64,000 nucleotides of DNA from Candidatus Moraniibacteriota bacterium (GCA_016182385.1 JACPGV010000002.1:253190-317189), one strand, 5' to 3'. Shown: positions 1,044 through 53,999, numbered from the stretch's first letter. Made by a program: numbers and translations. The notes: generated from the letters alone by a model not told the origin.

Positions 1044-1643
1044 ATGTCATTTTTTGGTGTTGATCTCATAACGCTTATTCAGGCGGTTGGATATACGGGG
1101 CTTTTTGCGATTGTTTTTGCTGAGACAGGGTTGTTTTTGGGATTTTTTTTGCCGGGAGATAGCTTGCTTTTTGTGGCTGGTTTTCTTGCCGGACAGAATC
1201 TTTTCTCTTTGCCTGTGCTTATTGGTGGTTTGTGTGTTTCGGCCATACTTGGAAATGTATTGGGGTATGAGTTTGGTCGTCGTATCGGCCCAAAGCTTTT
1301 CAACCGAGAAGATTCTTTTATTTTCAAGAAAGCGCATGCGTTACGGGCACAAAATTTTTATGAAAAACATGGTCCGAAAACCATTGTTTTAGCGCGTTTT
1401 ATGCCTATTGTGCGGACATTTGCACCGATTGTTGCCGGTGTTGCCAATATGCATTACCCGGCTTTTCTTTTGTATAATATTATCGGCGCGATACTTTGGA
1501 CGGTTGGATTGGTGCTTCTCGGTTATTTTCTTGGAAGTGTTATTGATGTTGATCGGTATCTTTTACCGATTATTCTTCTTATCGTTTTTCTTTCTTTTTT
1601 GCCTGGTATTATCGGTTATATCAAAGAAAAACGTTCTCGATGA
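1044..1643 (+). CDS. DedA/VTT-domain (SNARE-associated) family membrane protein
   Basis: Motif GYTGLFAIVFAETGLFLGFFLPGDSLLFVAGFLAG…RFMPIVRTFAPIVAGVANM is typical of DedA/YqjA. The ATG at 1044 (MSFFGVDL) is preferred over the TTG at 1020. Confidence 0.7.
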   Translation: MSFFGVDLITLIQAVGYTGLFAIVFAETGLFLGFFLPGDSLLFVAGFLAGQNLFSLPVLIGGLCVSAILGNVLGYEFGRRIGPKLFNREDSFIFKKAHALRAQNFYEKHGPKTIVLARFMPIVRTFAPIVAGVANMHYPAFLLYNIIGAILWTVGLVLLGYFLGSVIDVDRYLLPIILLIVFLSFLPGIIGYIKEKRSR

Positions 1644-1731
1644 GACGCGATTTCTTGACAGGAGATTTCTTTTTTATTAAGGGGTGCTACAATGGACACC
1701 AAGGGAATCTTCCCTTCTTTTGGAGGTCGTT

Positions 1732-1950
1732 ATGTCTTCCAATACGAGAGTTCTTCTTTCACCTTTTGCATTCCCCTTAGTCGCCGTAGCCCAAGCATCA
1801 TTTTTTTGTGGCTTTTGGCTTCTTTTTTTGGCGGGTGTTCACGAGGAAAAGCAAACGCCTCTTTCGGAAAATGAATCAAAGGATTCTTTTCATGAGGCGA
1901 CCCTTTCCAATCTATTTGATATGCGTGGAAGAAGGATATCACGCGTTTAG
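1732..1950 (+). CDS. small hypothetical protein (72 aa) with hydrophobic N-terminal half
   Basis: An ATG preceded by GGAGG at -7. The ORF is followed by a hairpin plus T-tract. There is no recognisable domain. Confidence 0.3.
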   Translation: MSSNTRVLLSPFAFPLVAVAQASFFCGFWLLFLAGVHEEKQTPLSENESKDSFHEATLSNLFDMRGRRISRV

Positions 1951-1957
1951 AGCCTCC

Positions 1958-1990
1958 CCCCTTATCTTTTCGTGAGATGAGGGGTGATTT
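1958..1990 (+). terminator. hairpin (CCCCTTATC…GATGAGGGG) followed by T7 run; intrinsic terminator-like
   Basis: An imperfect 9-bp stem with a TTTTTTT tract, seen directly in the sequence. Confidence 0.3.
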
Positions 1991-1992
1991 TT

Positions 1993-2793
1993 TTATGCCC
2001 AGCGAAGAAAAAGGAAAATATACACCAAAATCATTACCCAAAAGCTAATGATAAAAAATTTTCGCCCTCGTTTTTTTGTGTTTTCATCGGTACAGATTTC
2101 TTTTGTAGTAAAACCGCAATCCTTGAAAAGAAAAATTGATTCATAGAGTCGCACAATGATAACCCAAGCGAGAAAAAGACTTACGAGCATACCGAGTCCG
2201 GGGAGAAGGGGATTGGCGAGTTCAGCGCTCGGGGTACCGCCTTGCTTGAGCCATTTCATCCAGCCTTGCCATTTCATTACGACGACATGGATAACTGTGA
2301 AGACGATGACGGCTCGTAGACCGAAGCGTTGAAGAAACCACCAGCGTTTTCCGTCCATGAGGTGGATAACTCTTTCGAGTGAAAGAACAAAAAGAAAAAC
2401 AAGGATAAGTGATCCTATAAGACCGGCGAGAAAAGGAATATTTTCAATAGTGAATTTTTCTTGGGGGAATTTTAAGGGAAGAAAGTGGTATGAAAGAATA
2501 CCGTGAGAGAGCGCGAGAAATCCGCCGATAATACCGATTTCTTTGCGATAACCGAGCCATTTATCAAAACGATCAAAATAACGAACAATTGGCCCGATAA
2601 GAAATGTAAGAGCGAGGAGGACGGTGCCGACGCCAATAATCACTTTATTGAAGACAAAAAATGTATCCGCACTTGGTGGGGCATCAAAAAGATATCCGCG
2701 ACGTATCAAAAGATAAGAACTAAAAAGTGTCAGAAGTATGGCGGCTAGAAAAATGGCGATAGCGTAATCTTTGAGACTGGATGGTTTATGCAT
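1993..2793 (-). CDS. polytopic membrane protein, ferric-reductase-like TM domain (MsrQ/YedZ-like) candidate
   Basis: About six TM helices with conserved His residues inside the TM helices (…ALSHGILSYHF…, …FTVIHVVVMKW…). Family assignment rests on the motif only. Confidence 0.35.
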   Translation of the reverse strand: MHKPSSLKDYAIAIFLAAILLTLFSSYLLIRRGYLFDAPPSADTFFVFNKVIIGVGTVLLALTFLIGPIVRYFDRFDKWLGYRKEIGIIGGFLALSHGILSYHFLPLKFPQEKFTIENIPFLAGLIGSLILVFLFVLSLERVIHLMDGKRWWFLQRFGLRAVIVFTVIHVVVMKWQGWMKWLKQGGTPSAELANPLLPGLGMLVSLFLAWVIIVRLYESIFLFKDCGFTTKEICTDENTKKRGRKFFIISFWVMILVYIFLFLRWA

Positions 2794-2801
2794 AAGTGTG
2801 T

Positions 2802-3119
2802 TTAACGAAATTCAAAAAGAATATTAGAGAAATTTTTAATGCGGTTTTGTTTGTCGATGTCGATACCCTCCTTTTTGTAAAGGCGGAGGCGTTCTTTGTG
2901 GTATTTGGCGTTACTCCAGATGCGTCCATTGGCGTAGACAATACGATGAAAAGGAATATCTTTGATGCCGTTTTCCCATGCCTTTCCTAAAATGCCAGTA
3001 ATGCTTCGAGAGGCAAGGGTTCCGCCTCCGGCCGCTTTGGCAATACGTCCATAGGTAGTGACTCGTCCCTTTGGAATTGATCGAGCGATACGTATAACTC
3101 GTTCACTGAAAGTAATCAT
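2802..3119 (-). CDS. MGMT-family DNA-binding domain protein (alkyltransferase-like; active-site Cys replaced by Phe: PFHRIV)
   Basis: …TTYGRIAKAAGGG…ASRSITGILGKAWENGIKDIPFHRIVYANGRIW matches the Ogt/Ada C-terminal domain, but the PCHR motif reads PFHR. Confidence 0.7.
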   Translation of the reverse strand: MITFSERVIRIARSIPKGRVTTYGRIAKAAGGGTLASRSITGILGKAWENGIKDIPFHRIVYANGRIWSNAKYHKERLRLYKKEGIDIDKQNRIKNFSNILFEFR

Positions 3120-3204
3120 ATTTTTTCTTTAGTATAACATTTTTTCGCACAGTTTTGTATTTGTATTAAAAATAAGAGTAATATGGTAAATAAAAAACTC
3201 CTTT

Positions 3205-3236
3205 TTTAAAGGAGGGGTTTTTGTTTAGACCGCAAT
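3205..3236. terminator. A-run / CTCCTTT-TTT-AAAGGAG hairpin / T-run; bidirectional terminator-like
   Basis: Sequence aaaaaaCTCCTTTtttAAAGGAGgggttttt, located downstream of the minus-strand tRNA-Gln. Confidence 0.3.
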
Positions 3237-3498
3237 ACGTTTTTGCGAATTAGGTGTTGGTTCTTTATAAAATCAGTTTTTATTTTTTTGACTTTGTAGT
3301 ACGTAGAAATGGTTTATGATTTTTACGAAACCATGACTAATCACAAAGGTGACTGGCCATGTCTTGAATCACCCTCTAGCCCGGCAAGCCGGTCACCCCA
3401 GACGGGTAAACAGATGTTTTCCCGACATTTTTCCCTTCAATCCCGTCCATCATGGTATAACTAAAAAAGCCCCTGAAGGGACCTTTCGTTTGTATATG

Positions 3499-3570
3499 CT
3501 GGGGAGGAAGGGATCGAACCTTCGTATGGAGGCTTCAAAGGCCCCTGCCTTACCGCTTGGCTACTCCCCA
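3499..3570 (-). tRNA. tRNA-Gln (anticodon UUG)
   Basis: The reverse complement is UGGGGAGUAGCCAAGCGGUAAGGCAGGGGCCUUUGAAGCCUCCAUACGAAGGUUCGAUCCCUUCCUCCCCAG. It has a cloverleaf with a 7-bp acceptor stem, the anticodon loop CUUUGAA and the T-loop UUCGAUC. The U1-A72 pair and GCCAAGCGGUAAGGC D-arm are typical of bacterial tRNA-Gln. CCA is not encoded. Confidence 0.9.
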
Positions 3571-3595
3571 AAATTTTTAGGATCTTGATAAAACG

Positions 3596-5188
3596 TCAAC
3601 TGTTTTCCGGAATTACTCGACCTCCGAGAAGTTCCATCGCTTGATTGACGAGCGGATGAGTAAGAAAGGAATCATTCTTTTTTTCTACTTTCTCGCCATC
3701 AAGGACGATGCGAACAGTTATTTGTGACGTAAGAATGGTATCAAAGGCTTTCTTCAGTGTCAATTGATTGGCTGGTTCTTCGAGGCGTTCTTTATGGAAA
3801 GAATATTTAACGGCAAGAGTAATGGTGTTTCCCTCTACGCGTATCGGGGAGGCTGTTGAAAGAGCGAGCGTGAGTGAGGCATTGAGATTTTTGGCAGTAT
3901 CGAGAATACGTTGCCATTTTTCTAAAATATCGGCAAGGGAGAGAGGGGTAATCTCTTTACTTTCTGTTGTAGAGAGAGTTTTCGTTTCCGGTGAGGATTG
4001 TTCTTTTTGTTCGTACGATGTTTCTGGCGAGGGAGGAATATTTTTTGTTTGTGAGGGAGAGGAAATATCTTGTTTTTTACCTGATGGTGGCGTTTCATGA
4101 TGAGAGGAGAGTGTTTTGACGATGGCTATTTGTAGAGGGAGTTCCGGAATGACGGCATTTTTTGCTGTAGCGTGAGCTGTTTGAAAATATTCGAGCATGC
4201 GGACAATCTCTTCCGGGGAAAAAATGGCGGCGAGCTCAAAAAGAGATGCTTTTTGTTCATCAGTAAGATGGTCAAGCGCGTCGAAAGCTTTTTCGGAGTT
4301 AGCCGATATGAGCAAGAGATCGCGCAAAGAGTAAAGGCACATCCCCGAAAAGAGGGCGAGATCAATACCGTTTTGGGAAAGCTTTGTGACAAAGCTCAGA
4401 CTTGGATAGAGAGCGTGTTTACTTAAGAGATGGAGGAGTTCAAGAACGCTTTCTTTTCTGGTGGTGCCCAGTATCTCGGTAACGTACTCTCCGGTGATTT
4501 TTTTATTTTCTAAGGAGGCAATTTGAGTGAGAAGCGATTCGGCATCACGCATACCGCCTTCGGCTGAAAGGGCAATCATTTCCAAGGCTTCTTTTTCAAT
4601 GGTCATTTTCTCCGCTTTGGCGATTTTTTCAAGTTTCCCCACGATGCTTTTTATGGAAAAACGAGCGAGATCAAATCGCTGACAACGAGAAATAACGGTG
4701 TCGGGTACTTTGTGAAGAGCGGTAGTGGCGAGGATAAAAACAACGTGAGCTGGTGGTTCCTCGAGTGTTTTTAAGAGCGCGTTGAAGGCACCAATAGAAA
4801 GCATATGCACCTCGTCGATGATGTATATTTTATGTGAGCCCAGCGTTGGGGGAAGCGTGACGGTTTCTCTTAGTTCGCGAATATTATCAACACCGGTATG
4901 AGAAGCGGCATCAATTTCGATAATATCAAGAGAGCGGTTTTCGCTCATAAGGACGCAGTGCTCGCACTTTCCGCATGGCTCAAAACCTTTTCGTTTTGAG
5001 CAGTTGATAGCTTTAGCAAAGAGTCGTGCTAAGGTTGTTTTTCCGGTACCGCGGGGACCGGTGAAAAGATAAGCTTGTCCGATACGTCCAAAACGTAAGG
5101 CATTCGTAAGGGTTTGGACAACGTGTTTTTGTTCGACGACATCAGAAAAGGTTTGTGGTCGGTATTTTCTGTAAAGGGTGGTGGACAT
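3596..5188 (-). CDS. dnaX: DNA polymerase III subunit gamma/tau
   Basis: MSTTLYRKYRPQTFSDVVEQKHVVQTLTNALRFGRIGQAYLFTGPRGTGKTTLARLFAKAINC… with the zinc module CGKCEHC. The ATG is at 5188; the upstream in-frame GTG at 5218 is less likely. Confidence 0.9.
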   Translation of the reverse strand: MSTTLYRKYRPQTFSDVVEQKHVVQTLTNALRFGRIGQAYLFTGPRGTGKTTLARLFAKAINCSKRKGFEPCGKCEHCVLMSENRSLDIIEIDAASHTGVDNIRELRETVTLPPTLGSHKIYIIDEVHMLSIGAFNALLKTLEEPPAHVVFILATTALHKVPDTVISRCQRFDLARFSIKSIVGKLEKIAKAEKMTIEKEALEMIALSAEGGMRDAESLLTQIASLENKKITGEYVTEILGTTRKESVLELLHLLSKHALYPSLSFVTKLSQNGIDLALFSGMCLYSLRDLLLISANSEKAFDALDHLTDEQKASLFELAAIFSPEEIVRMLEYFQTAHATAKNAVIPELPLQIAIVKTLSSHHETPPSGKKQDISSPSQTKNIPPSPETSYEQKEQSSPETKTLSTTESKEITPLSLADILEKWQRILDTAKNLNASLTLALSTASPIRVEGNTITLAVKYSFHKERLEEPANQLTLKKAFDTILTSQITVRIVLDGEKVEKKNDSFLTHPLVNQAMELLGGRVIPENS

Positions 5189-5304
5189 AGGGATTTTGGA
5201 AATATCAATGCGGGACACAAGAAAAACAGGAAGGGGTGCTTTTAGTATATATCTTTTTCTTCAACAAAAAAAGTCTCCCGTCGGAGACTTTGTGGCAAAA
5301 AACT

Positions 5305-5910
5305 TTATTTCTTGAAAACAAAAAATTTGTATCCGACAAAGTTCCATGTGAGAACGAGAATGGAGGCGGTGAGTCCGCCAACATTAGCCCAGGCCTTTTC
5401 GGTAATGCCGACTGGAGCACCGATAATATTGACGACAAAAGCCGTAATACCGACATTAAGAAGAAGCCCGGTAAGACTGACAAGGAGAAATTGTGTGAAT
5501 TCTTCTCCAACATTGGCGACATCTTTCTTTTCAAATGACCAAAATTTATTCCATACGTAACTATTGATAATGGCGGTCATAACGGCAAAACTTTTGAAAA
5601 CCGCAATAAGGTACCCGCTTGAAACATCGCTCATGAAAATAAAAAGATTGTAAATACCGAGATCGATGACGGTATTGGTGACACCGACAAGACCGAATTT
5701 GGAAAGTTGAAAGAAAAACGAACGGATTCGTGAAAGGAAATAGCCAAAAGCTACGCCGAGAGCTGATAGAGTGGCGAGAAGAGGTGCAAAAAAAACAACC
5801 GGAACGGGGAGCGTGAGAGTAAGATTAGCGAAAATAAACGGAGCGAGAATACCAATAAATGCTCCATTGATTGCCGCAAATAAGAGATCACGAAGAGAGA
5901 GTTGCTGCAT
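5305..5910 (-). CDS. GtrA-family membrane protein (polysaccharide synthesis-associated)
   Basis: A small four-TM protein with the GtrA-like motif …FGLVGVTNTVIDLGIYNLF… and a C-terminal TWNFVGYKFFVFK. The start at MQQLSLRD (5910) abuts the upstream gene's stop. Confidence 0.55.
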   Translation of the reverse strand: MQQLSLRDLLFAAINGAFIGILAPFIFANLTLTLPVPVVFFAPLLATLSALGVAFGYFLSRIRSFFFQLSKFGLVGVTNTVIDLGIYNLFIFMSDVSSGYLIAVFKSFAVMTAIINSYVWNKFWSFEKKDVANVGEEFTQFLLVSLTGLLLNVGITAFVVNIIGAPVGITEKAWANVGGLTASILVLTWNFVGYKFFVFKK

Positions 5911-5912
5911 GA

Positions 5913-6686
5913 TTATGGTTGTTGTTGATGAGAGATTTCTTTTTCTATTTCTTCCATATCTCGCACCCAATCATCCAAGACGGTGTTTGTATTTTCGTGT
6001 TTATCACTCTGGTGGATGCTTAAGGATTCTTTGGAGACATCTTTGAGTTCTTGTTTCCATTGGTTGATGCTTTCATTTTCTTCGGCGGCTTTAGAAAGCG
6101 TTGTTTGCCAGTCTTGATGAGCGCCTTTTTGGATGATATTCTCAATAGCCGCCCATGTTGCCTCTATATCGTGAGGAACAACGATAGCGACCTCGTCTCC
6201 GGGCACAGCTTTAAAATAGGTAATAGAAGCAAGTAATACTCGGTAAGGCTTGCCATTGGCAATAACGTAATAATTGCCATTTTCGTCTTGCGCGACGACC
6301 GCAATGGCATGCCGTCGTTCGATAGGGCCAATTTGTTTGTAGAGAAAAGCACCATCTTCGGTGATGGTAAGTTTGAGCATATCGCCTTCGACAAGTTTGG
6401 ATTTTGAAGCGTAGTTGGCCGGTACAGGGTATTGTTTTCCATCAGTTCCAAGCATCAACTGACCGTCGAAAGTTCCTTCGACGACAGTTCCTTGGGCGGT
6501 ATCGAGATCCATTTTGCGGGGACGTCCACTCTTCTTTTTTCCTTCAAGTTGCAAGAGCATTGCTTTAGCGCCTTGAATGGTTTTTTCCGCACTCAGTACC
6601 ATTTCGCGCAAGGCCTGAATTTTCATCGTTCGCTCTTGTTCGTTTTGACTGTCCGTTTCTTCTGGAAGTGTATTTTGTGTTGTCAT
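5913..6686 (-). CDS. hypothetical protein (257 aa), acidic termini, GRPRK AT-hook-like motif
   Basis: A clean ATG ORF, apparently co-operonic with the GtrA gene. No recognisable domain. Confidence 0.4.
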   Translation of the reverse strand: MTTQNTLPEETDSQNEQERTMKIQALREMVLSAEKTIQGAKAMLLQLEGKKKSGRPRKMDLDTAQGTVVEGTFDGQLMLGTDGKQYPVPANYASKSKLVEGDMLKLTITEDGAFLYKQIGPIERRHAIAVVAQDENGNYYVIANGKPYRVLLASITYFKAVPGDEVAIVVPHDIEATWAAIENIIQKGAHQDWQTTLSKAAEENESINQWKQELKDVSKESLSIHQSDKHENTNTVLDDWVRDMEEIEKEISHQQQP

Positions 6687-6938: not shown

Positions 6939-8003
6939 ATGTCAAAAGAAGAAAAGGCGTCAATGCGAAAAAACCTTCCAAATAAGGGGTTTTTTGTTTC
7001 GGCTATAGAGGATCTTTTGGGGGATATTTCTCCCCGTTCCTTGGCTATTGTAGAAGCTCGTTTTGGTATTGGGGGAGAGCGACCCAAAACACTTGAAGAA
7101 ATCGGGAAATTTTATCAGATTACGCGTGAGCGAGTACGACAGGTAGTGGTAAGCGTCATGGGGTTTCTTTCTCATCAAAGCACTCGACCGGTATTTGAAG
7201 AGGCTGCTTCACGAGTGCGTGTGTTATTGGAAAAGAACGATGGCATTGTAAAGTCGGAAATACTTCTTGAAACATTGGCGTCCGGTAGCGCCGCTGAACA
7301 CGGTGCGCTGCTTGCGTTCCTGGCAAGTTTTTCTTTTCTTGAGGAAAGCAAAGAAACAAGAGAGTGTGAAACGGTCTTTTTTTTGAAGGGATTTTCTTTT
7401 GATGATTGGAAGAAGGTAAAAAACGAAGCGAAAGAAATTTTGGAATCTGCGGGAACCACCCTTGATGAAAATGTGTTGTATCGTCTTTTTAAAGAGAAAA
7501 ATAAGATGATAGAAAAAGAAAAGTTTTTTCATTTTTTGAGCGTGTCCAAAGAGATTCGGCCGAATGTTTTTGGAAAATGGGGATTGTCAAATTGGAGCGA
7601 TATAAAGCCGCGCGGTACTCGTGAAAAGGCGCACCTTATTTTAAAGATGACCAAGAAACCTTTGCATTTTCGTGAGATTTCATTGCTCATTGATACGTAT
7701 GGTTTGCAGGGCGCGAAGAAGAAAAAGAGCCATCCTCAAACCGTTCATAACGAACTTATTAAAGATGAACGTTTCATTCTCGTCGGGCGAGGTATTTATG
7801 CGCTTGCCGAATGGGGATACACGCGTGGCACTGTCAAAGAAGTTTTGGAAGATATTTTCAAGCATTCTGAGAAACCATTGTCTCGGGAAGAGGTTTTGGT
7901 GGAGATTCTCAAAATTCGTCAAGTAAAAAAGTCGACAGTAATTATCAATCTCAATACATTTTTTCATCGCGTGGATAAAGACATGTATACATTGAAAAAA
8001 TAA
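6939..8003 (+). CDS. sigma-70 region-4-like helix-turn-helix DNA-binding protein
   Basis: The N-terminal region (…LAIVEARFGIGGERPKTLEEIGKFYQITRERVRQVVVSVMGFL) matches sigma70 region 4.2 / LuxR-type HTH. The remainder has no recognisable domain. This architecture is common in CPR genomes. Confidence 0.55.
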   Translation: MSKEEKASMRKNLPNKGFFVSAIEDLLGDISPRSLAIVEARFGIGGERPKTLEEIGKFYQITRERVRQVVVSVMGFLSHQSTRPVFEEAASRVRVLLEKNDGIVKSEILLETLASGSAAEHGALLAFLASFSFLEESKETRECETVFFLKGFSFDDWKKVKNEAKEILESAGTTLDENVLYRLFKEKNKMIEKEKFFHFLSVSKEIRPNVFGKWGLSNWSDIKPRGTREKAHLILKMTKKPLHFREISLLIDTYGLQGAKKKKSHPQTVHNELIKDERFILVGRGIYALAEWGYTRGTVKEVLEDIFKHSEKPLSREEVLVEILKIRQVKKSTVIINLNTFFHRVDKDMYTLKK

Positions 8004-8128
8004 TTTTCAATATGCGGTAGAAAAAAAATGGATTGTACGTTATAATGAAATCAAGAAAATAACCTGTTCGATTTTGAAAGAGGTTTTACCAATCATATCA
8101 AAACACGGGTCAACGCACCCCTACTCCG

Positions 8129-9430
8129 ATGGACACTCTTTTTGCCCCTTTGGGAGATTTCTTTTCAGCTATGGGATCTATGTTCTCAGTCGTTTTGAGC
8201 GTGTGGTTTATTCTTTTTCCACCGATTCTTTTTTTTGTTTTTAAGGTGTTGTGGGTGCCTTACGTGCAGGGGAGATATGCGTCAAAAATCAAATGGATAC
8301 TTCTCGAAATTATTCCGCCACGAGACATTGAGAAGAGTCCATTGCCCATGGAATCTATTTTTTCTGGTTTTGCTGGCGTCATAAAAACTCCCACCACTGC
8401 TGAAGAATGGATCGGGGGAGAGTTTCCCGTATCTTTTTCTTTGGAGATAGCCAGTCATGAAGGTGAAGTGCATTTTTATATTCGTACGCAGGCCGGTTTT
8501 CGAGATCTTGTGGAAGCGCAATTTTATGCGCATTACCCCAATGTCGAGATCGTGGAAGTGCCGGATTATATTACTCGGTTGCCCAAAACCATTCCTAATA
8601 AAGGTTGGGAGTTATGGGGGGCCGATTTGGCTTTGACGAAGGACGACCTTTATCCCATCAAAACATATAAATATTTCGAGGAGAGTGTCACCGGAAAGAT
8701 GATTGATCCATTGGCGAGTCTTGTAGAAACTATGGGCAAAGCTGGTCCCGGGCAATTCATGTGGCTTCAGATGATTACGACGCCTATAAAAGAATCTTGG
8801 GCCAAAGAACATGGTCAGCCGGTCGTTGATACTTTTTTAGGAAGAGTCAAAGAGGAAAAAATGGGTATTTTTGCCCGACTTCTTTTGGATATCAAGGATA
8901 TTCTTTTGAATTTGCATACGGCTCTTCTGGGTAAAGAGGTGGTGTACAGTACCGGTGCCAGCGATGAGAAAAAAGATGAACAGCCGGTGGAGTTTCGTTT
9001 GACTCCTGGAGAAAAGGATGTCTTGAAGGCTCTGCAGTCGCAAATGGGAAAACAACAATTCAAGATGCGCATGCGCTATGTCTATACAGCACGGCGGGAT
9101 ATTTTCAGTAAAACATTCGGTGTAGCGGCTTTCATGGGGAGTATGAAACAGTTTGCTGATCAGAATATGAATGGGTTTAAGCCCGAAGATCATTCCAAAA
9201 CGGACGCAAAATATATATTTGTCGAACCGCGTTTGCGTTTTCGCCAACGGCGTATTTTCAATCGTTATATCAATCGAGATGCTGATCCGCAGAAAACACG
9301 TTTTATTCTGAGTTCTGAAGAACTGGCGACGGTGTTTCATATTCCCGATATGGCTGTCAGTACGCCGACACTTTCGCGAGTCTCCGCTAAACGAGGTTCC
9401 GCGCCTGCTAATTTACCTATACAAGAATAG
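8129..9430 (+). CDS. hypothetical membrane-anchored protein (N-terminal 2 TM), co-operonic partner of the VirD4-like ATPase
   Basis: An N-terminal hydrophobic region (FSVVLSVWFILFPPILFFVFKVLWV) followed by a large soluble domain. Its stop is 7 nt before the next gene's ATG. Confidence 0.45.
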   Translation: MDTLFAPLGDFFSAMGSMFSVVLSVWFILFPPILFFVFKVLWVPYVQGRYASKIKWILLEIIPPRDIEKSPLPMESIFSGFAGVIKTPTTAEEWIGGEFPVSFSLEIASHEGEVHFYIRTQAGFRDLVEAQFYAHYPNVEIVEVPDYITRLPKTIPNKGWELWGADLALTKDDLYPIKTYKYFEESVTGKMIDPLASLVETMGKAGPGQFMWLQMITTPIKESWAKEHGQPVVDTFLGRVKEEKMGIFARLLLDIKDILLNLHTALLGKEVVYSTGASDEKKDEQPVEFRLTPGEKDVLKALQSQMGKQQFKMRMRYVYTARRDIFSKTFGVAAFMGSMKQFADQNMNGFKPEDHSKTDAKYIFVEPRLRFRQRRIFNRYINRDADPQKTRFILSSEELATVFHIPDMAVSTPTLSRVSAKRGSAPANLPIQE

Positions 9431-9436
9431 TGTTTT

Positions 9437-11383
9437 ATGATTCATACTGATCAAAACGACATTACTTTTTTTGCTAAAACGAACTTTCGTAATCAGGATC
9501 GGGTGTTTGGTATCAAGACGGATGATCGACGTCGGCACATGTACGTCATCGGCAAGACTGGTATGGGAAAAACCAATCTTCTCGAGAATTTGGCGATACA
9601 AGATATTCAGAAGGGTCATGGTATTGCTTTTATCGATCCGCACGGTGATACGGCGGAAAAACTTATTCGAGCTATTCCAGCGAATCGTATCAATGACGTC
9701 ATTTATTTCAATCCAGCCGATCAAGATTTCCCCATTGCTTTCAATGTAATGGAAAAAGTCAGTCCCGAGTATCGGCATCTTGTGGCGTCCGGTCTGGTCG
9801 GCGTGTTCAAGAAGATATGGGCGGATTCATGGGGACCGCGTCTTGAATATATTCTCCGCAACGCCATTTTGGCACTCCTTGAATACCCTGGTTCGACACT
9901 TCTCGGCGTGACGCGTATTTTGGTGGATAAATCCTATCGTGACCGTGTTGTGGAAAAAGTGACCGATCCGGTGGTGCGGAGTTTTTGGGTGGATGAATTT
10001 TCCAAGTGGAACGACCGCGTACTTCAAGAAGTCATTTCGCCGATTCAAAACAAGGTGGGACAATTTTTGACGAGTTCGCTTATTCGCAATATCGTTGGTC
10101 AGACGACATCGTCTTTTGATGTGCGTGATGTGATGGATGGTCGCAAGATTCTCATCATGAATCTTTCCAAGGGGCGCATAGGTGAAGACAACAGCGCACT
10201 TCTGGGCGCGATGATCATCACCAAGATCCAACTTGCCGCGATGGCACGGGTGGATATTCCCGAAGATGATCGCAATGATTTTTATTTGTATGTCGACGAA
10301 TTTCAAAATTTTGCGACGGAATCATTTGCTAATATTCTTTCGGAAGCTCGCAAATATCATTTGAATCTTGTTCTCGCTAATCAATATGTGACGCAGATCG
10401 ACGAAAAAGTGCGTGACGCTATTTTCGGTAATGCGGGAAGCATCATTTCTTTCCGTGTCGGTGCGATGGATGCGGAGTTTTTGGAAAAAGAATTTGAGCC
10501 GGTATTTATTGCGAATGATCTTGTCAATTTGGAAAAATATAATATTTATCTCAAATTGATGATTGATGGTATCGCTGGAGATGCGTTTTCCGCCACCACG
10601 TTGCCGCCGATCAAATTGGAAGATGCCGGCAACGAAGAGAAGATTATTCATAGTTCTCGGGAGCGGTATTCGTCGAGTAAGATTGAGGTAGAAGACAAGA
10701 TTCGTCGGTGGAGTGGAATGCTTACGGCGGAAGAACGTCAAGCCTTCGCAGGACAATCATCGCGTGCGAGGGATGTGCAGACGACTGTTGAAAAAAATAC
10801 GTCGCAGAGGAAACAAATTCACTCTCCGTCGCCTATGTTTTCTCGAGGAAAAGAACACAAGCCGGTGTACCCACAAAAAAGAGAGGAGCATGTCGTGGTG
10901 ACACGTGAGACACCGATGGCTGAAATACCCGCGAACGAGATTGTTCCAGCGTCTCTGGAAAAGAAAGAAGAGGGAGAACAAAAAGAAAAAAATATTTCTC
11001 AAGGAGAAGAGAGTGTGGAAAAGAAGATGTATGCCGCTTTGTGTGCGACATGTGGTGTCGATATTGCCGTTCCTTTTGAACCGGATGGAAAACGGCCGAC
11101 TTTTTGCAAGGATTGTTTGCGTGATTATCAACGGGCGACTGCCAAAGTACGAAATGAGACAGTGCCGAAAGAGAATGTGGCATCGAATAACGAGAGAGCA
11201 AAGAAAAAAGATGTTCGCACGATGCAGCCGAAAGCGTATGTTTCTTCTGATGCGCCCATGTCGCTTGGTCAGGTGCAACACGTCGGTCCGAAGAAATTCA
11301 AAACATTACAGCGACGTCCTTCTGTCAATTTGCAAGAGGTGCGATCGCTTATTGATCAGGCGAGAAAAAACACAGAAGAGTGA
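9437..11383 (+). CDS. VirD4/TraG/TraD-like (type IV coupling protein family) P-loop ATPase, TM-less, with C-terminal K/E-rich linker and C4 zinc-ribbon
   Basis: Walker A is VIGKTGMGKTNLLENLA and Walker B is DFYLYVDEFQNF. A TraG-D_C-like region follows: …ARKYHLNLVLANQYVTQIDEKVRDAIFGNAGSIISFRVG. The C-terminal motif is CATCG…VPFEPDGKRPTFCKDC. Confidence 0.7.
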   Translation: MIHTDQNDITFFAKTNFRNQDRVFGIKTDDRRRHMYVIGKTGMGKTNLLENLAIQDIQKGHGIAFIDPHGDTAEKLIRAIPANRINDVIYFNPADQDFPIAFNVMEKVSPEYRHLVASGLVGVFKKIWADSWGPRLEYILRNAILALLEYPGSTLLGVTRILVDKSYRDRVVEKVTDPVVRSFWVDEFSKWNDRVLQEVISPIQNKVGQFLTSSLIRNIVGQTTSSFDVRDVMDGRKILIMNLSKGRIGEDNSALLGAMIITKIQLAAMARVDIPEDDRNDFYLYVDEFQNFATESFANILSEARKYHLNLVLANQYVTQIDEKVRDAIFGNAGSIISFRVGAMDAEFLEKEFEPVFIANDLVNLEKYNIYLKLMIDGIAGDAFSATTLPPIKLEDAGNEEKIIHSSRERYSSSKIEVEDKIRRWSGMLTAEERQAFAGQSSRARDVQTTVEKNTSQRKQIHSPSPMFSRGKEHKPVYPQKREEHVVVTRETPMAEIPANEIVPASLEKKEEGEQKEKNISQGEESVEKKMYAALCATCGVDIAVPFEPDGKRPTFCKDCLRDYQRATAKVRNETVPKENVASNNERAKKKDVRTMQPKAYVSSDAPMSLGQVQHVGPKKFKTLQRRPSVNLQEVRSLIDQARKNTEE

Positions 11384-14642: not shown

Positions 14643-17273
14643 ATGAATATACATCGTTTTACTACCAAATCACAAGAAGCGGTGCGAAACGCGCAGGAAA
14701 TCGCACTCTCGCGTGGTAATGAACAAATGGACGTGCCGCATCTTTTGTATGCGCTTTTATTGCAGAAGGATTCGATTGTGCCGGTAGTTTTACAGAAACT
14801 TGACGTGGAGACGGAAAGCCTTAAAGGAGCGGTCCTTGATATGCTTGATCGTTTTTCACGAACGAATATGGGTGGAACGGGACAACTTTCTCTTTCGCCG
14901 ATTCTTGTACAAGTTTTTAATATGGCGGAGAAAGAGATGGTGCGTATGAATGATGGTTTTATTTCTACTGAGCATTTGTTTTTGGCGATATTATCAGTAT
15001 CCGGTGACGCGAAAAAACTTCTAGAAAAATTTGGCGTGTATCATGATGAAGTGCTCAAAACGCTTTCTCTTGTGCGTGGAGGACAACGAGTGGAGAGCGA
15101 AACACCTGAGGCGACGTACCAAGCGCTTGAAAAATATGCTCTCAATTTGACGACTCTCGCGCGTGAGGAAAAGCTTGACCCGGTGATCGGTCGTGATGAA
15201 GAGATTCGACGAGTGATGCAAGTGCTTTCCCGCCGCACCAAGAATAATCCTGTGCTTATTGGAGAGGCAGGGACAGGGAAAACGGCCATTGCCGAGGGCT
15301 TGGCTCAGCGCATTATTTCTGGAGATGTGCCAGAAACCTTGAAAAACAAAGAAATAATTTCGCTTGATCTTGGAGCACTTCTCGCTGGGGCAAAGTTTCG
15401 GGGGGAATTTGAGGAGCGTCTGAAGGCCGTCCTCAAAGAAATCGAATCGGCGCCGGAACGTTTTGTTCTTTTTATCGATGAGCTTCATACGCTTGTGGGG
15501 GCGGGCGCCACTGAGGGAGCGCTTGACGCTTCCAATATGCTGAAACCGGCTCTTGCGCGCGGAAAACTTCGTACAGTGGGGGCGACCACGCTCAAGGAGT
15601 ATCAGAAATATATTGAAAAAGACGCGGCACTTGAACGTCGTTTTCAACCGGTGCTCGTGCAGGAACCATCTGAAGAAGATACGCTTGCCATTTTACGCGG
15701 GATCAAAGAAAAATACGCACTGCATCACGGCGTCAATATTACCGATGATGCGCTTATCGCGGCGGTCAAACTTTCTCGTCGCTATATTACGGATCGATTT
15801 TTACCGGATAAGGCGATTGATCTTATTGACGAGGCGGCATCTTTGCGACGGATGGAAATTGATTCTTTGCCGACAGAGCTTGATCAATTGGCGCGTGCTA
15901 TTCGTCGTTTGGAAATTGAAAAACGCGCGTTAGAAAAAGAAAATAAAAATCAAACGAAAAAGAAGATTGAAGTCATCAACAAGGAATTGTCCGAATTGAA
16001 CGAACGGTCTCGAGCGCTTTCTTTTCAGTGGAAATCAGAACGTGATCTTATTGTGGCGGCGCGCGCGCATAAAGCGGAAATAGAAAAATGGCGATCGCGG
16101 GCGGAAGTAGCGGAGCGCGAGGGACAACTTGATCGTGTGGCGGAAATTCGTTACGGAAAGATTCCAGAGCTTGAAAAAAGTATTCGACTTGAAGAAAAGA
16201 AATTAAGCGCGTTGCAAAAAACCGGTTGTATGCTTCGGGAAGAAATTACCGAGGAAGATATTGCGGCGGTTGTGTCGAAAATGACCGGTGTCCCGATATC
16301 CAAAATGCTTGAAAGAGAAACGGAGAAGCTTGTTCATATGGAGGAAGCACTCGGGAGACGTGTTATCGGTCAGGATGAGGCAATACGATCGGTCGCGAAC
16401 GCTATCAGGCGCTCTCGTGCCGGACTCTCAGAGGAAACTCGTCCAATCGGCTCCTTCATATTTCTTGGTATGACGGGAGTGGGGAAAACGGAGTTGGCCA
16501 AAGCGTTGGCGGAATTTCTTTTTGATGATGAGAAAGCCCTGGTGCGTATTGATATGTCTGAATATATGGAAGCGCATTCGACAGCCAAGCTTATCGGTTC
16601 GCCACCGGGGTATGTGGGCCATGAAGAAGGAGGTCAATTGACGGAAATCATTCGTCGTCGACCGTATAGTGTGCTTTTGCTTGATGAAATAGAAAAGGCG
16701 CATCCGAGTGTGTTTAATATTCTTTTGCAGGTTCTTGATGACGGACGATTGACTGACGCGAAGGGACGGACGGTGAATTTTAAGAATACGGTGATTATTA
16801 TGACATCGAATGTTGGCTCGGAAGTTTTAGTGCGTTCGAAAGATCTTGGTTTTATGGAAAAACGCGGGCAAGAAGGAGTTCTTTCGGAAAAAGAAATCAA
16901 AGAACGAATTTTGCGAAGTTTACGTGAAGCATTTAAACCGGAATTTCTTAATCGTATTGATGACATTGTCATTTTCCATCCGTTGTCGAAAAAAATGCTT
17001 GGGTATATCGTAAAATTGCAACTCGCGCGAGTAAGAGAACGTCTTAAAGAGCGTGGCATCCGAGTTCATTTTTCAGAAACGGTGGAGCAATATTTGGCCA
17101 AAAAAGGTTTTGATCCTTTTTATGGTGCTCGACCCCTCAAACGAAGTATTCAAAGTGAGGTGCTCGATCCTCTCTCTTTTGAAATTTTGGAAAAGAAAGT
17201 TCAAGATGGAGAAAGTATCGATGTAACTCTCAAAAAAGAAAAAATTATTTTTGTAAAGAAAAAGAAAAAATGA
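14643..17273 (+). CDS. clpB: ATP-dependent chaperone ClpB (two AAA+ modules plus M-domain coiled coil)
   Basis: The N-domain begins [18 protein letters not shown]…. D1 has [19 protein letters not shown]2 has [17 protein letters not shown], and there is a long coiled coil between them. Length is 876 aa. Confidence 0.95.
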
Positions 17274-26512: not shown

Positions 26513-26928
26513 TATTTGACGGGTGTTTTCTGAAGGAGATATCCTGCCAAGAAAAATCCGCCGATAAGAAGAAAAATAATAATGGGAGGAAATTTAAAAA
26601 GAGATACACTCAGGAGTGCGATAGCAAGAAGAAGTCCGAAGGAAAAGAGCGGACTTTTTTTATTGAATGAAAAGGGGAAAGAGAGATGAAGAAAACGTCC
26701 GAGAGCGGCGAGAAAGAAAGAAAAAAAGACAAGAGCGGAGAGCATTTTTGTAAGACTGAAACGTGCGGTGACAAATGTGGGAAGCAGTGTTTCGATGGTA
26801 AAGAGTCCTATGAATCCGAGGTATCCTAAGAGGAGTGCTTCCGCAAGAAGAGCATAGCAGACGGCGAGGAGGCCATTTTCTTTAGCGCGGAGAAGTTTTT
26901 TGTGTATGGTTTGAGAGAGGTGTTTCAT
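26509..26928 (-). CDS. small hypothetical membrane protein (4 TM)
   Basis: A hydrophobic ORF overlapping its neighbours by 4 nt at both ends. Confidence 0.35.
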   Translation of the reverse strand: MKHLSQTIHKKLLRAKENGLLAVCYALLAEALLLGYLGFIGLFTIETLLPTFVTARFSLTKMLSALVFFSFFLAALGRFLHLSFPFSFNKKSPLFSFGLLLAIALLSVSLFKFPPIIIFLLIGGFFLAGYLLQKTPVKY

Positions 26929-28106
26929 AGTCGTTCGGATTGAGAAGAGGTAAGGCCAAATCGCGCGAGCAGGCGTTCTTTGATTTGTGAAAGAACAAAC
27001 AACATATTTTCTTTGTTTTTATTGGTGACAAAAGAAAGTGAAAGGGTGTTGATATCTAGAGCGGAAGAAGTATTGGTGATATGTATTTCGAAATCATTTC
27101 CGGGAGCGTCGCGTAGCGCTTCGAGCGAAGCGTGACAGGAGAAAGAGCGGCCAAAAAAAGAGCGTGTCGGAAGACACGTGGTTGCCACGGTACTCATACG
27201 CGAGGAGGCATTGATCGGGGACTGTTTGCTGAGAAGAAAATCACGGTACGTTGTGTCGATAAGAGAGCGCTTCGTGTTGTGGTCAACGAGAAAATAAGTT
27301 TTTGTTTCTTGATCAAAGAAAAGCGTTCCATCGGGATGAATGTCACCTAAAAGGAAAATTTTTCCGCGTTTGTAAATACCAATTTCTTCTTCACTTGATG
27401 GAATAACGTTTTTGAAATCATAGCCGAGCGCAAGAAAAATATCGGCGCTACCGATAGGGCGCATTTCGGTTTCACTGACAATGACGAATACCCCATCAGC
27501 GAAAGAGACGAGAGACCCAACACGAAAGCCGATCCATTCTTCGGAGCGTGGATAGGAAGCAAGGAATGAAGGCGAAACTTCTGTGGCAAAGTGTTTTGGG
27601 TATCGTGAAAGGTAGGCATTTTCACTGATGAAAGGATAGAGCGTATTGTCACGAAGGGCATAATAGGCAGTATCAGAATAGTAGAGAATTTCTTTGGGAA
27701 AAGATTGTATAGACATGCCGTGAGGAAGAAAAAAACCGCGATAGGAACGATAGAGGGAGACGTTGAATGGATTATCAGAATCAGGGATGGCAGATTTTTT
27801 TTCGAGGGAAAAACTGATAAGAGCGGTGGAAAAATTTCCAACGACACCAACATCGGCAATGAGGGTCCCATTTTTTTCCAGTTGCCCGTTTTTTCTTGTG
27901 ACGTGTTCTGGTGAGCGTGGATGGAGAAGATTGTTTTTACTGGAATCAGGCGCACGGAAATCAAAAGAGAATGTCAGTGTTGGAAACAATACTCGCAGGG
28001 AGAATGCAACAATGATTATACTGGTGACAATATAAAGGAGTATACGAGCAAAACGATAGGTTGATTGCCAGTGTGGCGCGATAACGACAGAGGAAAAAGG
28101 GTTCAT
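26925..28106 (-). CDS. hypothetical secreted/membrane-anchored protein (393 aa)
   Basis: An N-terminal signal anchor (ILLYIVTSIIIVAFSL). It is co-directional and overlapping with the GT-C-like gene. No known domain. Confidence 0.4.
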   Translation of the reverse strand: MNPFSSVVIAPHWQSTYRFARILLYIVTSIIIVAFSLRVLFPTLTFSFDFRAPDSSKNNLLHPRSPEHVTRKNGQLEKNGTLIADVGVVGNFSTALISFSLEKKSAIPDSDNPFNVSLYRSYRGFFLPHGMSIQSFPKEILYYSDTAYYALRDNTLYPFISENAYLSRYPKHFATEVSPSFLASYPRSEEWIGFRVGSLVSFADGVFVIVSETEMRPIGSADIFLALGYDFKNVIPSSEEEIGIYKRGKIFLLGDIHPDGTLFFDQETKTYFLVDHNTKRSLIDTTYRDFLLSKQSPINASSRMSTVATTCLPTRSFFGRSFSCHASLEALRDAPGNDFEIHITNTSSALDINTLSLSFVTNKNKENMLFVLSQIKERLLARFGLTSSQSERL

Positions 28107-28112
28107 AGTATT

Positions 28113-29930
28113 TTAGTGAATCTCGAAAAGAATAGTATTTGTTTCTTGGAGGATCGGTTCTGGTAGTTTGAGAGCAGAACCATCTTCGAGCGAGAGCGAC
28201 TCAAGACCTTCACGAATGAAGAGAATGGATTTTTTGAAAAGTAAACGTTCGCCAAAAATAGACATAAAGCGCTCCTGATCACTTTCGGGAACGAGAAGAT
28301 AGGTGTGTTCGTATGGCGTGAGATTGAGTTTTTCCAGATCATGGGGATTGAAAAAATAGACGGCATTCTTATTGAAGAGATATTGCATTGGACCGGTAAT
28401 CATGGAAAATCCATCGCCGGTCACGTGCCGATCGATGAGAATAAGATCGCGATCAGTGAAGACTTGGCTGAGAGCGGCTGTTTGTTCGATAAGTGACCGA
28501 TTTTCAGAAAAAGTGACGGCTCTTTTCCATGCTGGATACTGAAAGGAAATAAGTAAGAGAAAGATGATGGTGACAGAGAGAAGGCGATGGCCGGTTGGTC
28601 GAGTTATGGGAAAAATTTTTTCTTTCGCGAAGAGAAGGGCAATACCGATGATACTCGAAAAGAGAAGTGTTGGAAAAAGAGAAAAAAGATAGCGCCGAAG
28701 CATCCAAGGATGGTCAAGAGAAATATTTGGATCGAAAAGATACAGAAACGTTGGAAGTGCTATGGCCACCGGAAGGAGCGCCATGAAACGTCGTTCTTTG
28801 ATGATGATGAGTATACCGAAAAGCCCCATGGTAAAGAGTGTGAGGAGTCCATAGAGAAAGAAGACGGATCCGAGAGGAAACGATGTCTCGATCATCTCCA
28901 CACTATTGGCGATATTTCCTTGCTCCGCTTGACCGAGAAACTTCAGGAGTGCCTTGCCAATCATTTTATAATAGGGAAGATTGATGAAAAAATCCCTCAG
29001 AAAAAAGAACCCGAAAATAATACCAGGAAAAACAAGGCTTTTAAAGGGGGAACTTTTCCAAAGAGATATGGCGTGCGTACTGAAAAAAAGTAGAAGGAGA
29101 GAGAGACCGAGAAAGAGGAAGCCTTCAATGCGGGTAAAAGCAAAAAGTCCCCCGGTAAGGAGAATGCTGAAATAGTAAAGACGTTTTCCTTCCCGGAAAA
29201 ATAAAAGAAGATTAAAAACGAGAAATGTGAATAGAAAAAGTGCAAGATTTTCGCTGAGGGTCATTTTGGCAAACCAGAGAGGAAGAAAAGAGAACAGAGA
29301 AACAAGTAGGCCGGCACCGGCATAAAACGGACAAACAAAAAGACGCAAAAGATGATAGAGCGTGATGAAAAAAAGAAAAAGAAGAAGCGCGTTGCTTATG
29401 TTTGGGCCGATGAATCCAAAGACAGAAACGAAGGCGGCGAGCCACGCAGTGTAACCAAGAGGAAACTGTGTCACGAGGTATCCTCCGTCCGTGTAAGCGA
29501 AACCGGGAAAATTGAGTGCTGTACCTTCCCCGTAGATTTCAAAGAAGCTGATCGTGGTTTTATTGGTAAATGCCAGTTCATTGTTCTGAGCGAGACGGAA
29601 GGCGGCTTCGGCGATAGATCCTTGGTCGCGGCCGGAAAAGACGGTTGGTTCCGAAGAAAGGGCGATAAAAATAGCAAAACAGAGAGAGAGAAAAAAAACA
29701 ACGCGAATGTCGTTTTTCGCATGCCAAAGAAGTTTGATACCGATGAGGAGAGGTAATGCCCCGCCTATGAGGAGAGCAAAAACAAGAAGAGGAAAAAAGA
29801 AAAAGCCGCTTATGGCGAGGGAGAGCGTGAACCATCCAAACACCACAAAAAAAAGTCCGAAGAGGACGAAGGAAGTATGATTTTTTTCTGAAAAAGAGGG
29901 AAAAGTGATCATGAGTACAGTATAACGCAA
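28113..29930 (-). CDS. large polytopic membrane protein, GT-C-fold glycosyltransferase-like (ArnT/PMT-type) candidate
   Basis: Ten or more TM helices in the N-terminal 450 aa plus a soluble C-terminal domain. The topology matches GT39/GT83. Assignment is by architecture only. Confidence 0.4.
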   Translation of the reverse strand: MRYTVLMITFPSFSEKNHTSFVLFGLFFVVFGWFTLSLAISGFFFFPLLVFALLIGGALPLLIGIKLLWHAKNDIRVVFFLSLCFAIFIALSSEPTVFSGRDQGSIAEAAFRLAQNNELAFTNKTTISFFEIYGEGTALNFPGFAYTDGGYLVTQFPLGYTAWLAAFVSVFGFIGPNISNALLLFLFFITLYHLLRLFVCPFYAGAGLLVSLFSFLPLWFAKMTLSENLALFLFTFLVFNLLLFFREGKRLYYFSILLTGGLFAFTRIEGFLFLGLSLLLLFFSTHAISLWKSSPFKSLVFPGIIFGFFFLRDFFINLPYYKMIGKALLKFLGQAEQGNIANSVEMIETSFPLGSVFFLYGLLTLFTMGLFGILIIIKERRFMALLPVAIALPTFLYLFDPNISLDHPWMLRRYLFSLFPTLLFSSIIGIALLFAKEKIFPITRPTGHRLLSVTIIFLLLISFQYPAWKRAVTFSENRSLIEQTAALSQVFTDRDLILIDRHVTGDGFSMITGPMQYLFNKNAVYFFNPHDLEKLNLTPYEHTYLLVPESDQERFMSIFGERLLFKKSILFIREGLESLSLEDGSALKLPEPILQETNTILFEIH

Positions 29931-53993: not shown

Positions 53994-53999
53994 AAATTT

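Follow-up and report, generated by a model that had tools for sequence, protein, structure and literature searches.

We analysed two adjacent genes at positions 8129-11383 of a 64,000-nucleotide (nt) stretch of DNA from a Candidatus Moraniibacteriota bacterium (GCA_016182385.1, JACPGV010000002.1:253190-317189; the whole stretch is called the window below). The first gene encodes a 433-amino acid (aa) protein of the Pfam family DUF8128 (PF26449), referred to here as the partner; the second encodes a 648-aa P-loop ATPase of the VirD4/TrwB family that resembles type IV coupling proteins (T4CPs) and has no transmembrane segment. Judged by their homologues, the two genes correspond to the N- and C-terminal modules of one subtype of coupling protein that monoderm conjugation systems employ. 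The interpretation we favour, and hold to be reasonably probable, is that the pair forms one machine, a VirD4/TrwB-family coupling protein in two polypeptides, that most likely serves a type IV secretion system (T4SS) encoded elsewhere.

The partner and its fused relatives

Both open reading frames (ORFs) lie on the + strand, the partner at 8129-9430 and the ATPase at 9437-11383. The partner's stop codon, TAG, ends at 9430 and is followed by a 6-nt spacer (TGTTTT, 9431-9436, +) and the ATG of the ATPase at 9437, as the initial annotation of this DNA had it when it described two tightly coupled genes. The spacer indicates translational and transcriptional coupling of the pair; a gap of 6 nt is too short for a promoter, which implies that the genes are co-transcribed. 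Identical proteins are recorded in a metagenome-assembled genome of Candidatus Moranbacteria, where the partner is named 'hypothetical protein' and the ATPase carries the NCBI name 'type IV secretion system DNA-binding domain-containing protein'.

The evidence that the two proteins belong together comes from relatives in which they are fused. A tblastn search of plasmids with the ATPase returned 515 records. In a 27.5-kb Bacillus subtilis plasmid (NZ_CP154917), an 885-aa 'DUF87 domain-containing protein' has an N-terminal half that matches DUF8128 (probability 98.5%, E 2e-15), and a Replic_Relax protein, conjugal transfer proteins and VirB4 are encoded 3' of it. The same fused arrangement is found with TcpD, TcpE and a TcpF-like ATPase on a 63.6-kb B. 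subtilis plasmid, and NZ_OX419581 carries a 913-aa fused DUF8128-type coupling protein. The Embleya plasmid NZ_CP108778 encodes an 812-aa T4SS-DNA_transf/TrwB protein whose N-terminal half again matches DUF8128 (85.7%, E 5.5e-6), in the order PrgI/VirB3, VirB4-like ATPase, 812-aa fusion, then Replic_Relax and an NlpC/P60 hydrolase; a 1193-aa haloarchaeal plasmid protein from Haladaptatus gives a weaker DUF8128 match (63%). The plasmid fusions thus neighbour Replic_Relax relaxase-type genes, VirB4 (AAA_10, 387 bits), PrgI/VirB3, TcpD/TcpE and a cell-wall hydrolase. They share the module order of the window pair, the EELA..H.P motif described below and an ATPase 28-34% identical to the window's. 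They differ from it in being a single polypeptide without the zinc-finger tail, whereas the window version is split, chromosomal, set among housekeeping genes and far more conserved.

Phage proteins tell the same story of order. The phage family phrog_5156 (824 positions) spans both window proteins (partner, 27-361; ATPase, 407-812; E 3e-61). In phage G, the N-terminal half of gp156 (825 aa) resembles DUF8128 by BLASTP (E 4e-9), hhalign (95.6%) and Foldseek (E 4e-20), and its C-terminal half is 28% identical to the window ATPase (E 1e-42). A tblastn search of phage genomes with the partner gave no match; the link to phages came from the PHROG profile and from searching with the ATPase and by fold. 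The phrog_5156 proteins have both modules fused but are phage-encoded: lytic Bacillus phages G, SPO1-like, CP-51, JL and Slash all carry the fused DUF8128-ATPase; the regions concerned are 1220-5362 of the phage G locus (L081, JN638751) and 2753-5488 of that of phage CP-51 (L082). In phage G, gp156 adjoins gp155, a VirB4-type ATPase with P-loop_TraG and AAA_10 domains. Because the same two modules form one polypeptide in plasmid and phage homologues, we read the window pair as a split coupling protein. The proposal in the initial annotation that the upstream gene supplies the N-terminus that canonical T4CPs carry themselves was thus essentially right. Its description of the module as specific to Patescibacteria was too narrow, since the fusions occur in Bacillota and Actinomycetota conjugation clusters, in Bacillus phages and probably in haloarchaea.

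The ATPase (9437-11383, +) is assigned to the VirD4/TrwB family by Pfam, NCBIfam, the Protein Data Bank (PDB) and fold comparison. The core motifs named in the initial annotation were all located: the Walker A sequence GKTGMGKT (aa 39-46; 9551-9574, +) and the Walker B sequence FYLYVDEFQNF (aa 282-292), both aligned to those of TrwB, and the LANQY sensor motif (aa 313-317), the last two lying in the TraG-D_C region (10280-10387, +). Pfam gave TrwB_AAD_bind (PF10412) at 40.9 bits (cut-off 20.5; aa 28-323), TraG-D_C (PF12696) at 24.2 bits (cut-off 22; aa 283-348) and DUF87 at 26.8 bits, just over its cut-off. There was no Pfam match to FtsK_SpoIIIE, and HerA_C reached only E 0.15; AAA_10, CagE_TrbE_VirB and TraC_F_IV matched neither the partner nor the ATPase. 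Sequence search of the PDB ranked TrwB (35.8 bits) and DotL (32.7 bits) above HerA (16.5 bits), and by fold DotL (E 3e-5), TrwB (2e-4) and Cagβ all came ahead of HerA (4d2i, 6.5e-3). T4CP profiles therefore outscore HerA, and the family first assigned to the protein stands. Scores against the NCBIfam equivalog models for TraD, VirD4 and CD1115 were far below their cut-offs; because the TraD and VirD4 scores fall so far short, we take the ATPase to be a divergent member of the VirD4/TrwB superfamily.

TrwB, VirD4, DotL and Cagβ share with the window ATPase the Walker A/B nucleotide-binding domain, the TraG-D_C region and probably an all-alpha insertion. They differ in having their own two-transmembrane N-terminus, in lacking a domain like DUF8128 or the VirB4 N-terminal domain and in being encoded with a relaxase or T4SS; the likeness of the window ATPase to canonical T4CPs is weak (35.8 bits to TrwB, as above). 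The insertion between Walker A and B (aa ~110-234; 9764-10138, +) comprises eight predicted helices in an AlphaFold2 (AF2) model. Its local confidence (predicted local distance difference test, pLDDT) is about 66-87 in a whole-ATPase model that is only moderate, and it may correspond to the all-alpha domain of T4CPs. No transmembrane-like segment was found anywhere in the 648 residues (maximum Kyte-Doolittle 19-residue mean 1.52), in agreement with the view that the ATPase starts without one.

Beyond the core, a variable and probably disordered linker (aa 431-528; 10727-11020, +) leads to a CxxC-x17-CxxC treble-clef zinc finger (aa 529-562, with C536, C539, C557 and C560; 11021-11122, +) and a basic tail of 86 aa (aa 563-648; 11123-11380, +) with a net charge of +9. 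What had been described as about 150 aa of low-complexity Lys/Glu sequence is a linker of ~98 aa that is moderately charged here (35% Lys, Glu, Arg or Asp; E 17, K 9, R 7) and rich in P, A, E, V and S in its orthologues, where it spans 31-202 aa (median 139, n=60). The C-terminal four-cysteine zinc motif was borne out: it scores above cut-off with both PF23477 (zf_Tbcl_2, 43.5 bits, cut-off 27) and TIGR04272 (47.3 bits, cut-off 36), and 60/64 orthologues have it too, always with 17 residues between the cysteine pairs. The basic tail is detectable in 69/80 loci at ~43% identity.

The partner (8129-9430, +) was identified through precomputed annotation: PF26449 is recorded for the identical protein and all listed homologues, whilst our own Pfam and NCBIfam profile scans assigned no family. 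What the initial annotation called a large domain of unknown function therefore already has a name, and a DUF8128 profile search gathered 2399 clusters at 50% identity; a literature search on that name found no paper. At its N-terminus is a presumed membrane anchor (8159-8266, +), seen by hydropathy as a single continuous hydrophobic stretch (aa 11-46). AF2 rendered it as helices 2-24 and 26-53 or as one long helix, 2-53, depending on the model. Across the DUF8128 family, ~14-20 uncharged columns follow an amphipathic helix, and in 16 of 49 homologues nothing rises above the transmembrane threshold, so that the two-transmembrane anchor first proposed is unsupported. We predict that the globular domain faces the cytoplasm, because basic residues follow the anchor (the positive-inside rule) and because its fused relatives join it to a cytoplasmic ATPase.

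The partner ends in a conserved motif, SSEELATVFHIPDM..P..RV.AKRG.AP.NLP (9311-9427, +; pLDDT 50-67), with invariant or near-invariant columns at E398, A400, H404, P406, P426, L429 and P430. A matching motif, EELATxFHxPD...AKRGxAPxNLP, can be aligned in the fused proteins of Bacillus, Embleya and Haladaptatus. As it directly precedes the P-loop domain in these proteins, it is likely to be a docking or linker segment to the ATPase.

The globular alpha/beta DUF8128 domain itself (aa 56-402; 8294-9334, +) probably has a fold like that of the VirB4 N-terminal domain, to go by its predicted structure. An AF2 model of the partner, built from a multiple sequence alignment of 49 diverse homologues, reached a pLDDT of 85.9 and a predicted template modelling score (pTM) of 0.80. 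Its top 14 Foldseek matches in the PDB were all TrwK, the VirB4 of R388 (E 2e-5 to 5e-3), and a DUF8128 alignment searched against PDB sequences gave nothing meaningful. TrwK is effectively the sole independent PDB match; outside the PDB, a second match is phage G gp155, in the BFVD viral structure library (E 6.5e-7). A concatenated model of the partner and the ATPase core was colinear with full-length VirB4 over ~800-840 columns (E 2e-6), with the partner opposite the VirB4 N-terminal domain. VirB4 (TrwK) and the pair would thus have a common two-domain layout, although the P-loop domain of the pair is closer to VirD4 than to VirB4.

Conservation and genomic context

We compared the locus in two sets. 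The close set comprised 80 species-representative genomes, all Moranbacteria-like; the divergent set comprised 80 metagenome loci collected with a divergent profile, in which the partner is 28-38% and the ATPase 60-72% identical to the window proteins. Taxonomic labels of the homologues extend to Moranbacteria, and breadth across Patescibacterial classes is judged from sequence divergence and the literature. In 79/80 close loci the ATPase gene directly follows the partner gene, the exception being a contig end. The two are adjacent in 56/80 divergent loci and separated by a single gene in one more (57/80); around 13 of the loci with no adjacent ATPase lack downstream sequence. Gaps between the orthologous genes are mostly -4 to +15 nt. 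The co-occurrence of the two genes across related genomes, anticipated in the initial annotation, is therefore borne out in both sets.

Median identity peaked locally at the ATPase core (86.6%), compared with 77% for ClpB, 59% for HtrA, 58.5% for the partner and 53% for DnaX; the mean pairwise distance was 0.23 for the ATPase and 0.52 for the partner. We take the two genes to be chromosomal in Patescibacteria, inherited vertically and under strong constraint. A solo ATPase core is encoded on the Sulfitobacter mediterraneus plasmid NZ_CP081110 (L091, 6986-8173). This 395-aa alphaproteobacterial protein is nearer to the core than any other relative found outside Patescibacteria (41% identity, E 7e-98). 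It has neither a partner gene nor a transmembrane segment and is followed 3' by transposase genes, which suggests that the bare ATPase has been horizontally transferred.

Directly upstream of the pair is a gene for a 354-aa protein (6939-8003, +) with Sigma70_r4 (aa 27-70) and HARE-HTH (aa 229-292) domains by Pfam. It occupies this position in 79/80 Moranbacteria loci and precedes the pair in 34 of 65 divergent metagenome loci with enough upstream sequence; it is also in place at divergent loci L083, L084, L088, L146, L162 and L168. The protein could be a DNA-binding adaptor or regulator of the module, or merely the product of a syntenic housekeeping gene. In the 125-nt gap between it and the partner gene, a consensus scan picked out a weak promoter-like site (TAGAAA-17-TATAAT; 8018-8046, +). 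Other window neighbours of the pair identified by Pfam are dnaX, ftsB, a SurA-like gene, htrA and clpB; ftsB lies 3' of the pair in 43/80 loci. No integrase is among the annotated neighbours, and GC content stays at 0.41-0.44 across the window with no composition shift.

Several further features of the region were recorded. Divergent from the Sigma70_r4/HARE-HTH gene is a 257-aa ORF (5913-6686, -) that matches no Pfam family beyond a sub-threshold TT1_Tal hit and is found at ~67% identity in 52/80 related loci. Two adjoining ORFs of 392 and 604 aa (26925-28106 and 28113-29930, both -) have no Pfam family at E <= 1e-5. A second ClpB-like AAA+ protein of 814 aa (30031-32475, +) has its main Pfam matches (AAA_2, ClpB_D2-small) in the C-terminal part; the canonical ClpB is encoded separately at 14643-17273. 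SecD-SecF is encoded directly or nearly directly 5' of the DUF8128 gene at divergent loci L118, L126, L154, L172 and L083; the secDF of the window is at 52314-54896, ~43 kb from the pair. All 2-kb bins of the window (1-64000) have a positive GC skew and long ORFs are mostly on the + strand, consistent with the entire window being on the leading strand of one replichore.

Coupling protein or import motor

By analogy with known systems, a mechanism for the pair can be outlined. The N-terminal hydrophobic helix of DUF8128 would place the partner at the cytoplasmic membrane, where its C-terminal peptide would dock the ATPase. On the model of TrwB, the ATPase would assemble into a hexameric ring that spends ATP on driving substrate into a membrane channel, and the linker, zinc finger and basic tail may bind substrates or adaptors, much as the C-terminal extensions of TraD and VirD4 do. 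The channel partner would most likely be the monoderm-type T4SS of the phylum (VirB3-TrsD-VirB4-VirB6), with its genes at another site in the genome.

The literature provides a setting for such a device. Quiñonero-Coronel et al. (2025) counted 5,713 T4CP (VirD4-type) homologues across 2,918 genomes of Patescibacteria, with only 148 located near virB4, and raised their possible exaptation (PMC12102498). The Patescibacterial T4SS is of the monoderm type, like the systems of the fused relatives, and its clusters are usually without a nearby T4CP; Table S3 of that study includes Moranbacteria genomes with a VirB3-TrsD-VirB4 cluster and distant t4cp1 hits (PMC12102498). The same table has VirB4 itself as adjoining genes, TrsD with PF11130 and then a P-loop VirB4 with ~55% profile coverage (PMC12102498); this division of VirB4 into two adjacent genes parallels that of the split coupling protein. 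The partner gene goes unmentioned in the survey (PMC12102498). A T4CP without a transmembrane domain had been presented in the initial annotation as a departure from the canon, yet the 'T4CP lacking TMD' is a recognised subclass with an adjacent membrane protein, exemplified by TraI/TraJ of pIP501 (PMC7434980). In pIP501 (pRE25), a coupling ATPase without a transmembrane segment likewise follows an overlapping membrane-protein gene, by the same logic as in the window. TraI (143 aa) has no likeness to DUF8128 (hhalign probability 0.6%) and TraJ matches the window ATPase marginally (BLASTP E 0.19); the resemblance is one of analogy, not orthology.

Several observations weigh against the coupling-protein reading or against parts of it. 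A Pfam analysis that covered nearly every large ORF of the window turned up no gene for a T4SS, a relaxase, a pilus or ComEC, as the initial annotation had noted of the relaxase and T4SS genes. Table S3 also lists t4cp1 hits in VirB4-negative genomes (PMC12102498). In Southlakia epibionticum, the T4CP homologue, which may not be orthologous to the window gene, is reported to be non-essential whilst T4SS genes are essential (PMC12102498), and Wang et al. (2023) found no recognisable coupling protein or relaxase in this essential T4SS (PMC10633639). About 10 divergent loci have other genes downstream of DUF8128 and no adjacent ATPase. As to the match between the partner and VirB4, Foldseek gave a probability of 1.0 but TM-scores of 0.33-0.38, and at the sequence level there was no support, the DUF8128 profile reaching an hhalign probability of 0.2% with each of three VirB4 proteins. 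The concatenated partner-ATPase AF2 model had a pTM of 0.53, with the C-terminal half of the ATPase core poorly predicted; the complex modelling suggested in the initial annotation was therefore too weak for any claim about an interface. The co-evolution check suggested there was equally uninformative: the mirror-tree correlation between partner and ATPase (r 0.905) did not rise above the phylogenetic background, since r was 0.90 with a neighbouring gene and for every gene pair tried.

The absence of T4SS genes nearby, the housekeeping context and the very strong conservation would also suit a nucleic-acid import motor independent of any T4SS, in which a membrane-tethered ring pulls in DNA or RNA, for example on the cytoplasmic side of ComEC behind a type IV pilus. 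We consider this unlikely, while granting it some weight; that the pair is a phylum-wide motor of this kind for host-derived DNA or RNA, behind ComEC and a type IV pilus or at another conduit, we would credit a little less readily still. On such a scheme the zinc finger and basic tail, and perhaps the upstream protein with its two helix-turn-helix domains, would handle the polynucleotide. The T4CP homologue and comEC are both reported to be dispensable for growth of Southlakia (PMC12102498; PMC12857230), where comEC is required for transformation (PMC12857230), and Patescibacteria need some unidentified nucleotide or RNA acquisition route (PMC11665869; bioRxiv 10.64898/2026.06.21.733656). The sole direct hint is the position of DUF8128 beside comEC and pilM in 2/80 divergent loci (L143 and L172), where the gene is directly followed by comEC (DUF4131 and Competence domains), a metallo-β-lactamase (MBL) domain, pilM and a pilin. 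At L172 (3987-9115), Pfam identified DUF8128, comEC, a separate MBL gene, pilM and a prepilin-like ORF, with SecD/SecF 5'; at L143 (1539-6846), the comEC-type order was judged from similar ORF starts, the Pfam scan having been run on L172 only. Neither locus has an ATPase within 5 kb of DUF8128, so that comEC adjacency amounts to 2/160 loci, both without the ATPase. The 64-kb window, moreover, contains neither comEC nor a pilus gene, and the fused relatives with informative context are all in export or conjugation clusters. No T4CP is known to work with ComEC. The verdict of the initial annotation in favour of uptake or translocation rather than conjugation was overstated.

Three other readings fare worse. 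A HerA/FtsK-type genome-maintenance ATPase with a membrane adaptor, acting in end resection or septal segregation, could account for the marginal DUF87 match (the HerA central domain), for the weaker fold match to HerA and for ftsB/divIC directly downstream. It is nevertheless very improbable: T4CP families score higher by sequence and fold, there is no FtsK_SpoIIIE match and no NurA-like neighbour, ftsB is downstream in only about half of the close loci, and Patescibacteria carry separate FtsK-like 't4cp2' hits (PMC12102498, Table S3). We reject a HerA/FtsK translocase identity on the profile and fold scores. A part in anti-phage defence, as a MADS-like mad8 or in a HerA-associated system, would explain a PADLOC match to mad8 (63 bits, E 8e-18, aa 22-371) alongside the weak HerA matches, but mad8 belongs to the same ATPase superfamily and the match probably reflects shared ancestry. 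With no methyltransferase, nuclease or other MADS gene within ±10 kb of this mad8-like ATPase, membership of MADS was rejected; the fixed synteny and very strong purifying selection are also unlike defence islands, and we give the idea hardly any credence. The same slight credence goes to the suggestion that the pair is what is left of a decaying prophage or integrated conjugative element. Plasmids and phages do carry the closest fused relatives, and an IMG/VR contig carries a truncated copy. This contig (IMGVR_UViG_3300009537_000513, L090) encodes the partner's C-terminal 40 aa (50% identity) and the first ~95 aa of the ATPase at 81-461, at the contig end, and may be chimeric or mis-binned. 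Against decay, neither reading frame is broken and every catalytic motif is preserved, synteny among housekeeping genes is maintained in 80 or more genomes with the ATPase the most conserved gene of the neighbourhood, and no integrase, relaxase or composition shift was seen; a mobile-element remnant is rejected on the intact frames, the conserved synteny and the missing integrase.

Implications for Patescibacteria

Patescibacteria account for a large part of bacterial diversity. Unable to synthesise nucleotides, amino acids or lipids, they rely on envelope machines of obscure role; their T4SS, essential in the single species tested, lacks a recognised coupling protein within its cluster. That T4CPs without a transmembrane domain form a subclass was already known, the ATPase had been covered by a survey of T4CP homologues, and the partner was a catalogued DUF. 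New here are the recognition of DUF8128 as the detached N-module of a T4CP subtype, with the split/fusion relationship that this entails; its probable VirB4-N-terminal-domain-like fold, as predicted by structural modelling; and the unusually strong constraint on the ATPase together with the conserved neighbouring gene for a helix-turn-helix protein. A role is thereby assigned to a Pfam DUF with about 2,400 clusters at 50% identity, and the insight that the pair is a split protein tells experimenters which two proteins to knock out, pull down and solve structurally.

Should the N-module prove to have a VirB4-like fold, a T4CP subfamily would keep an ancestral two-domain layout shared with VirB4, which would bear on the divergence of the two T4SS ATPases. 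If the pair were instead an import motor, it would supply the missing motor of a nucleotide-acquisition route in biosynthetically deficient bacteria. The pair is the best candidate for the coupling protein missing from the Patescibacterial T4SS cluster, or else for a separate nucleic-acid translocase.

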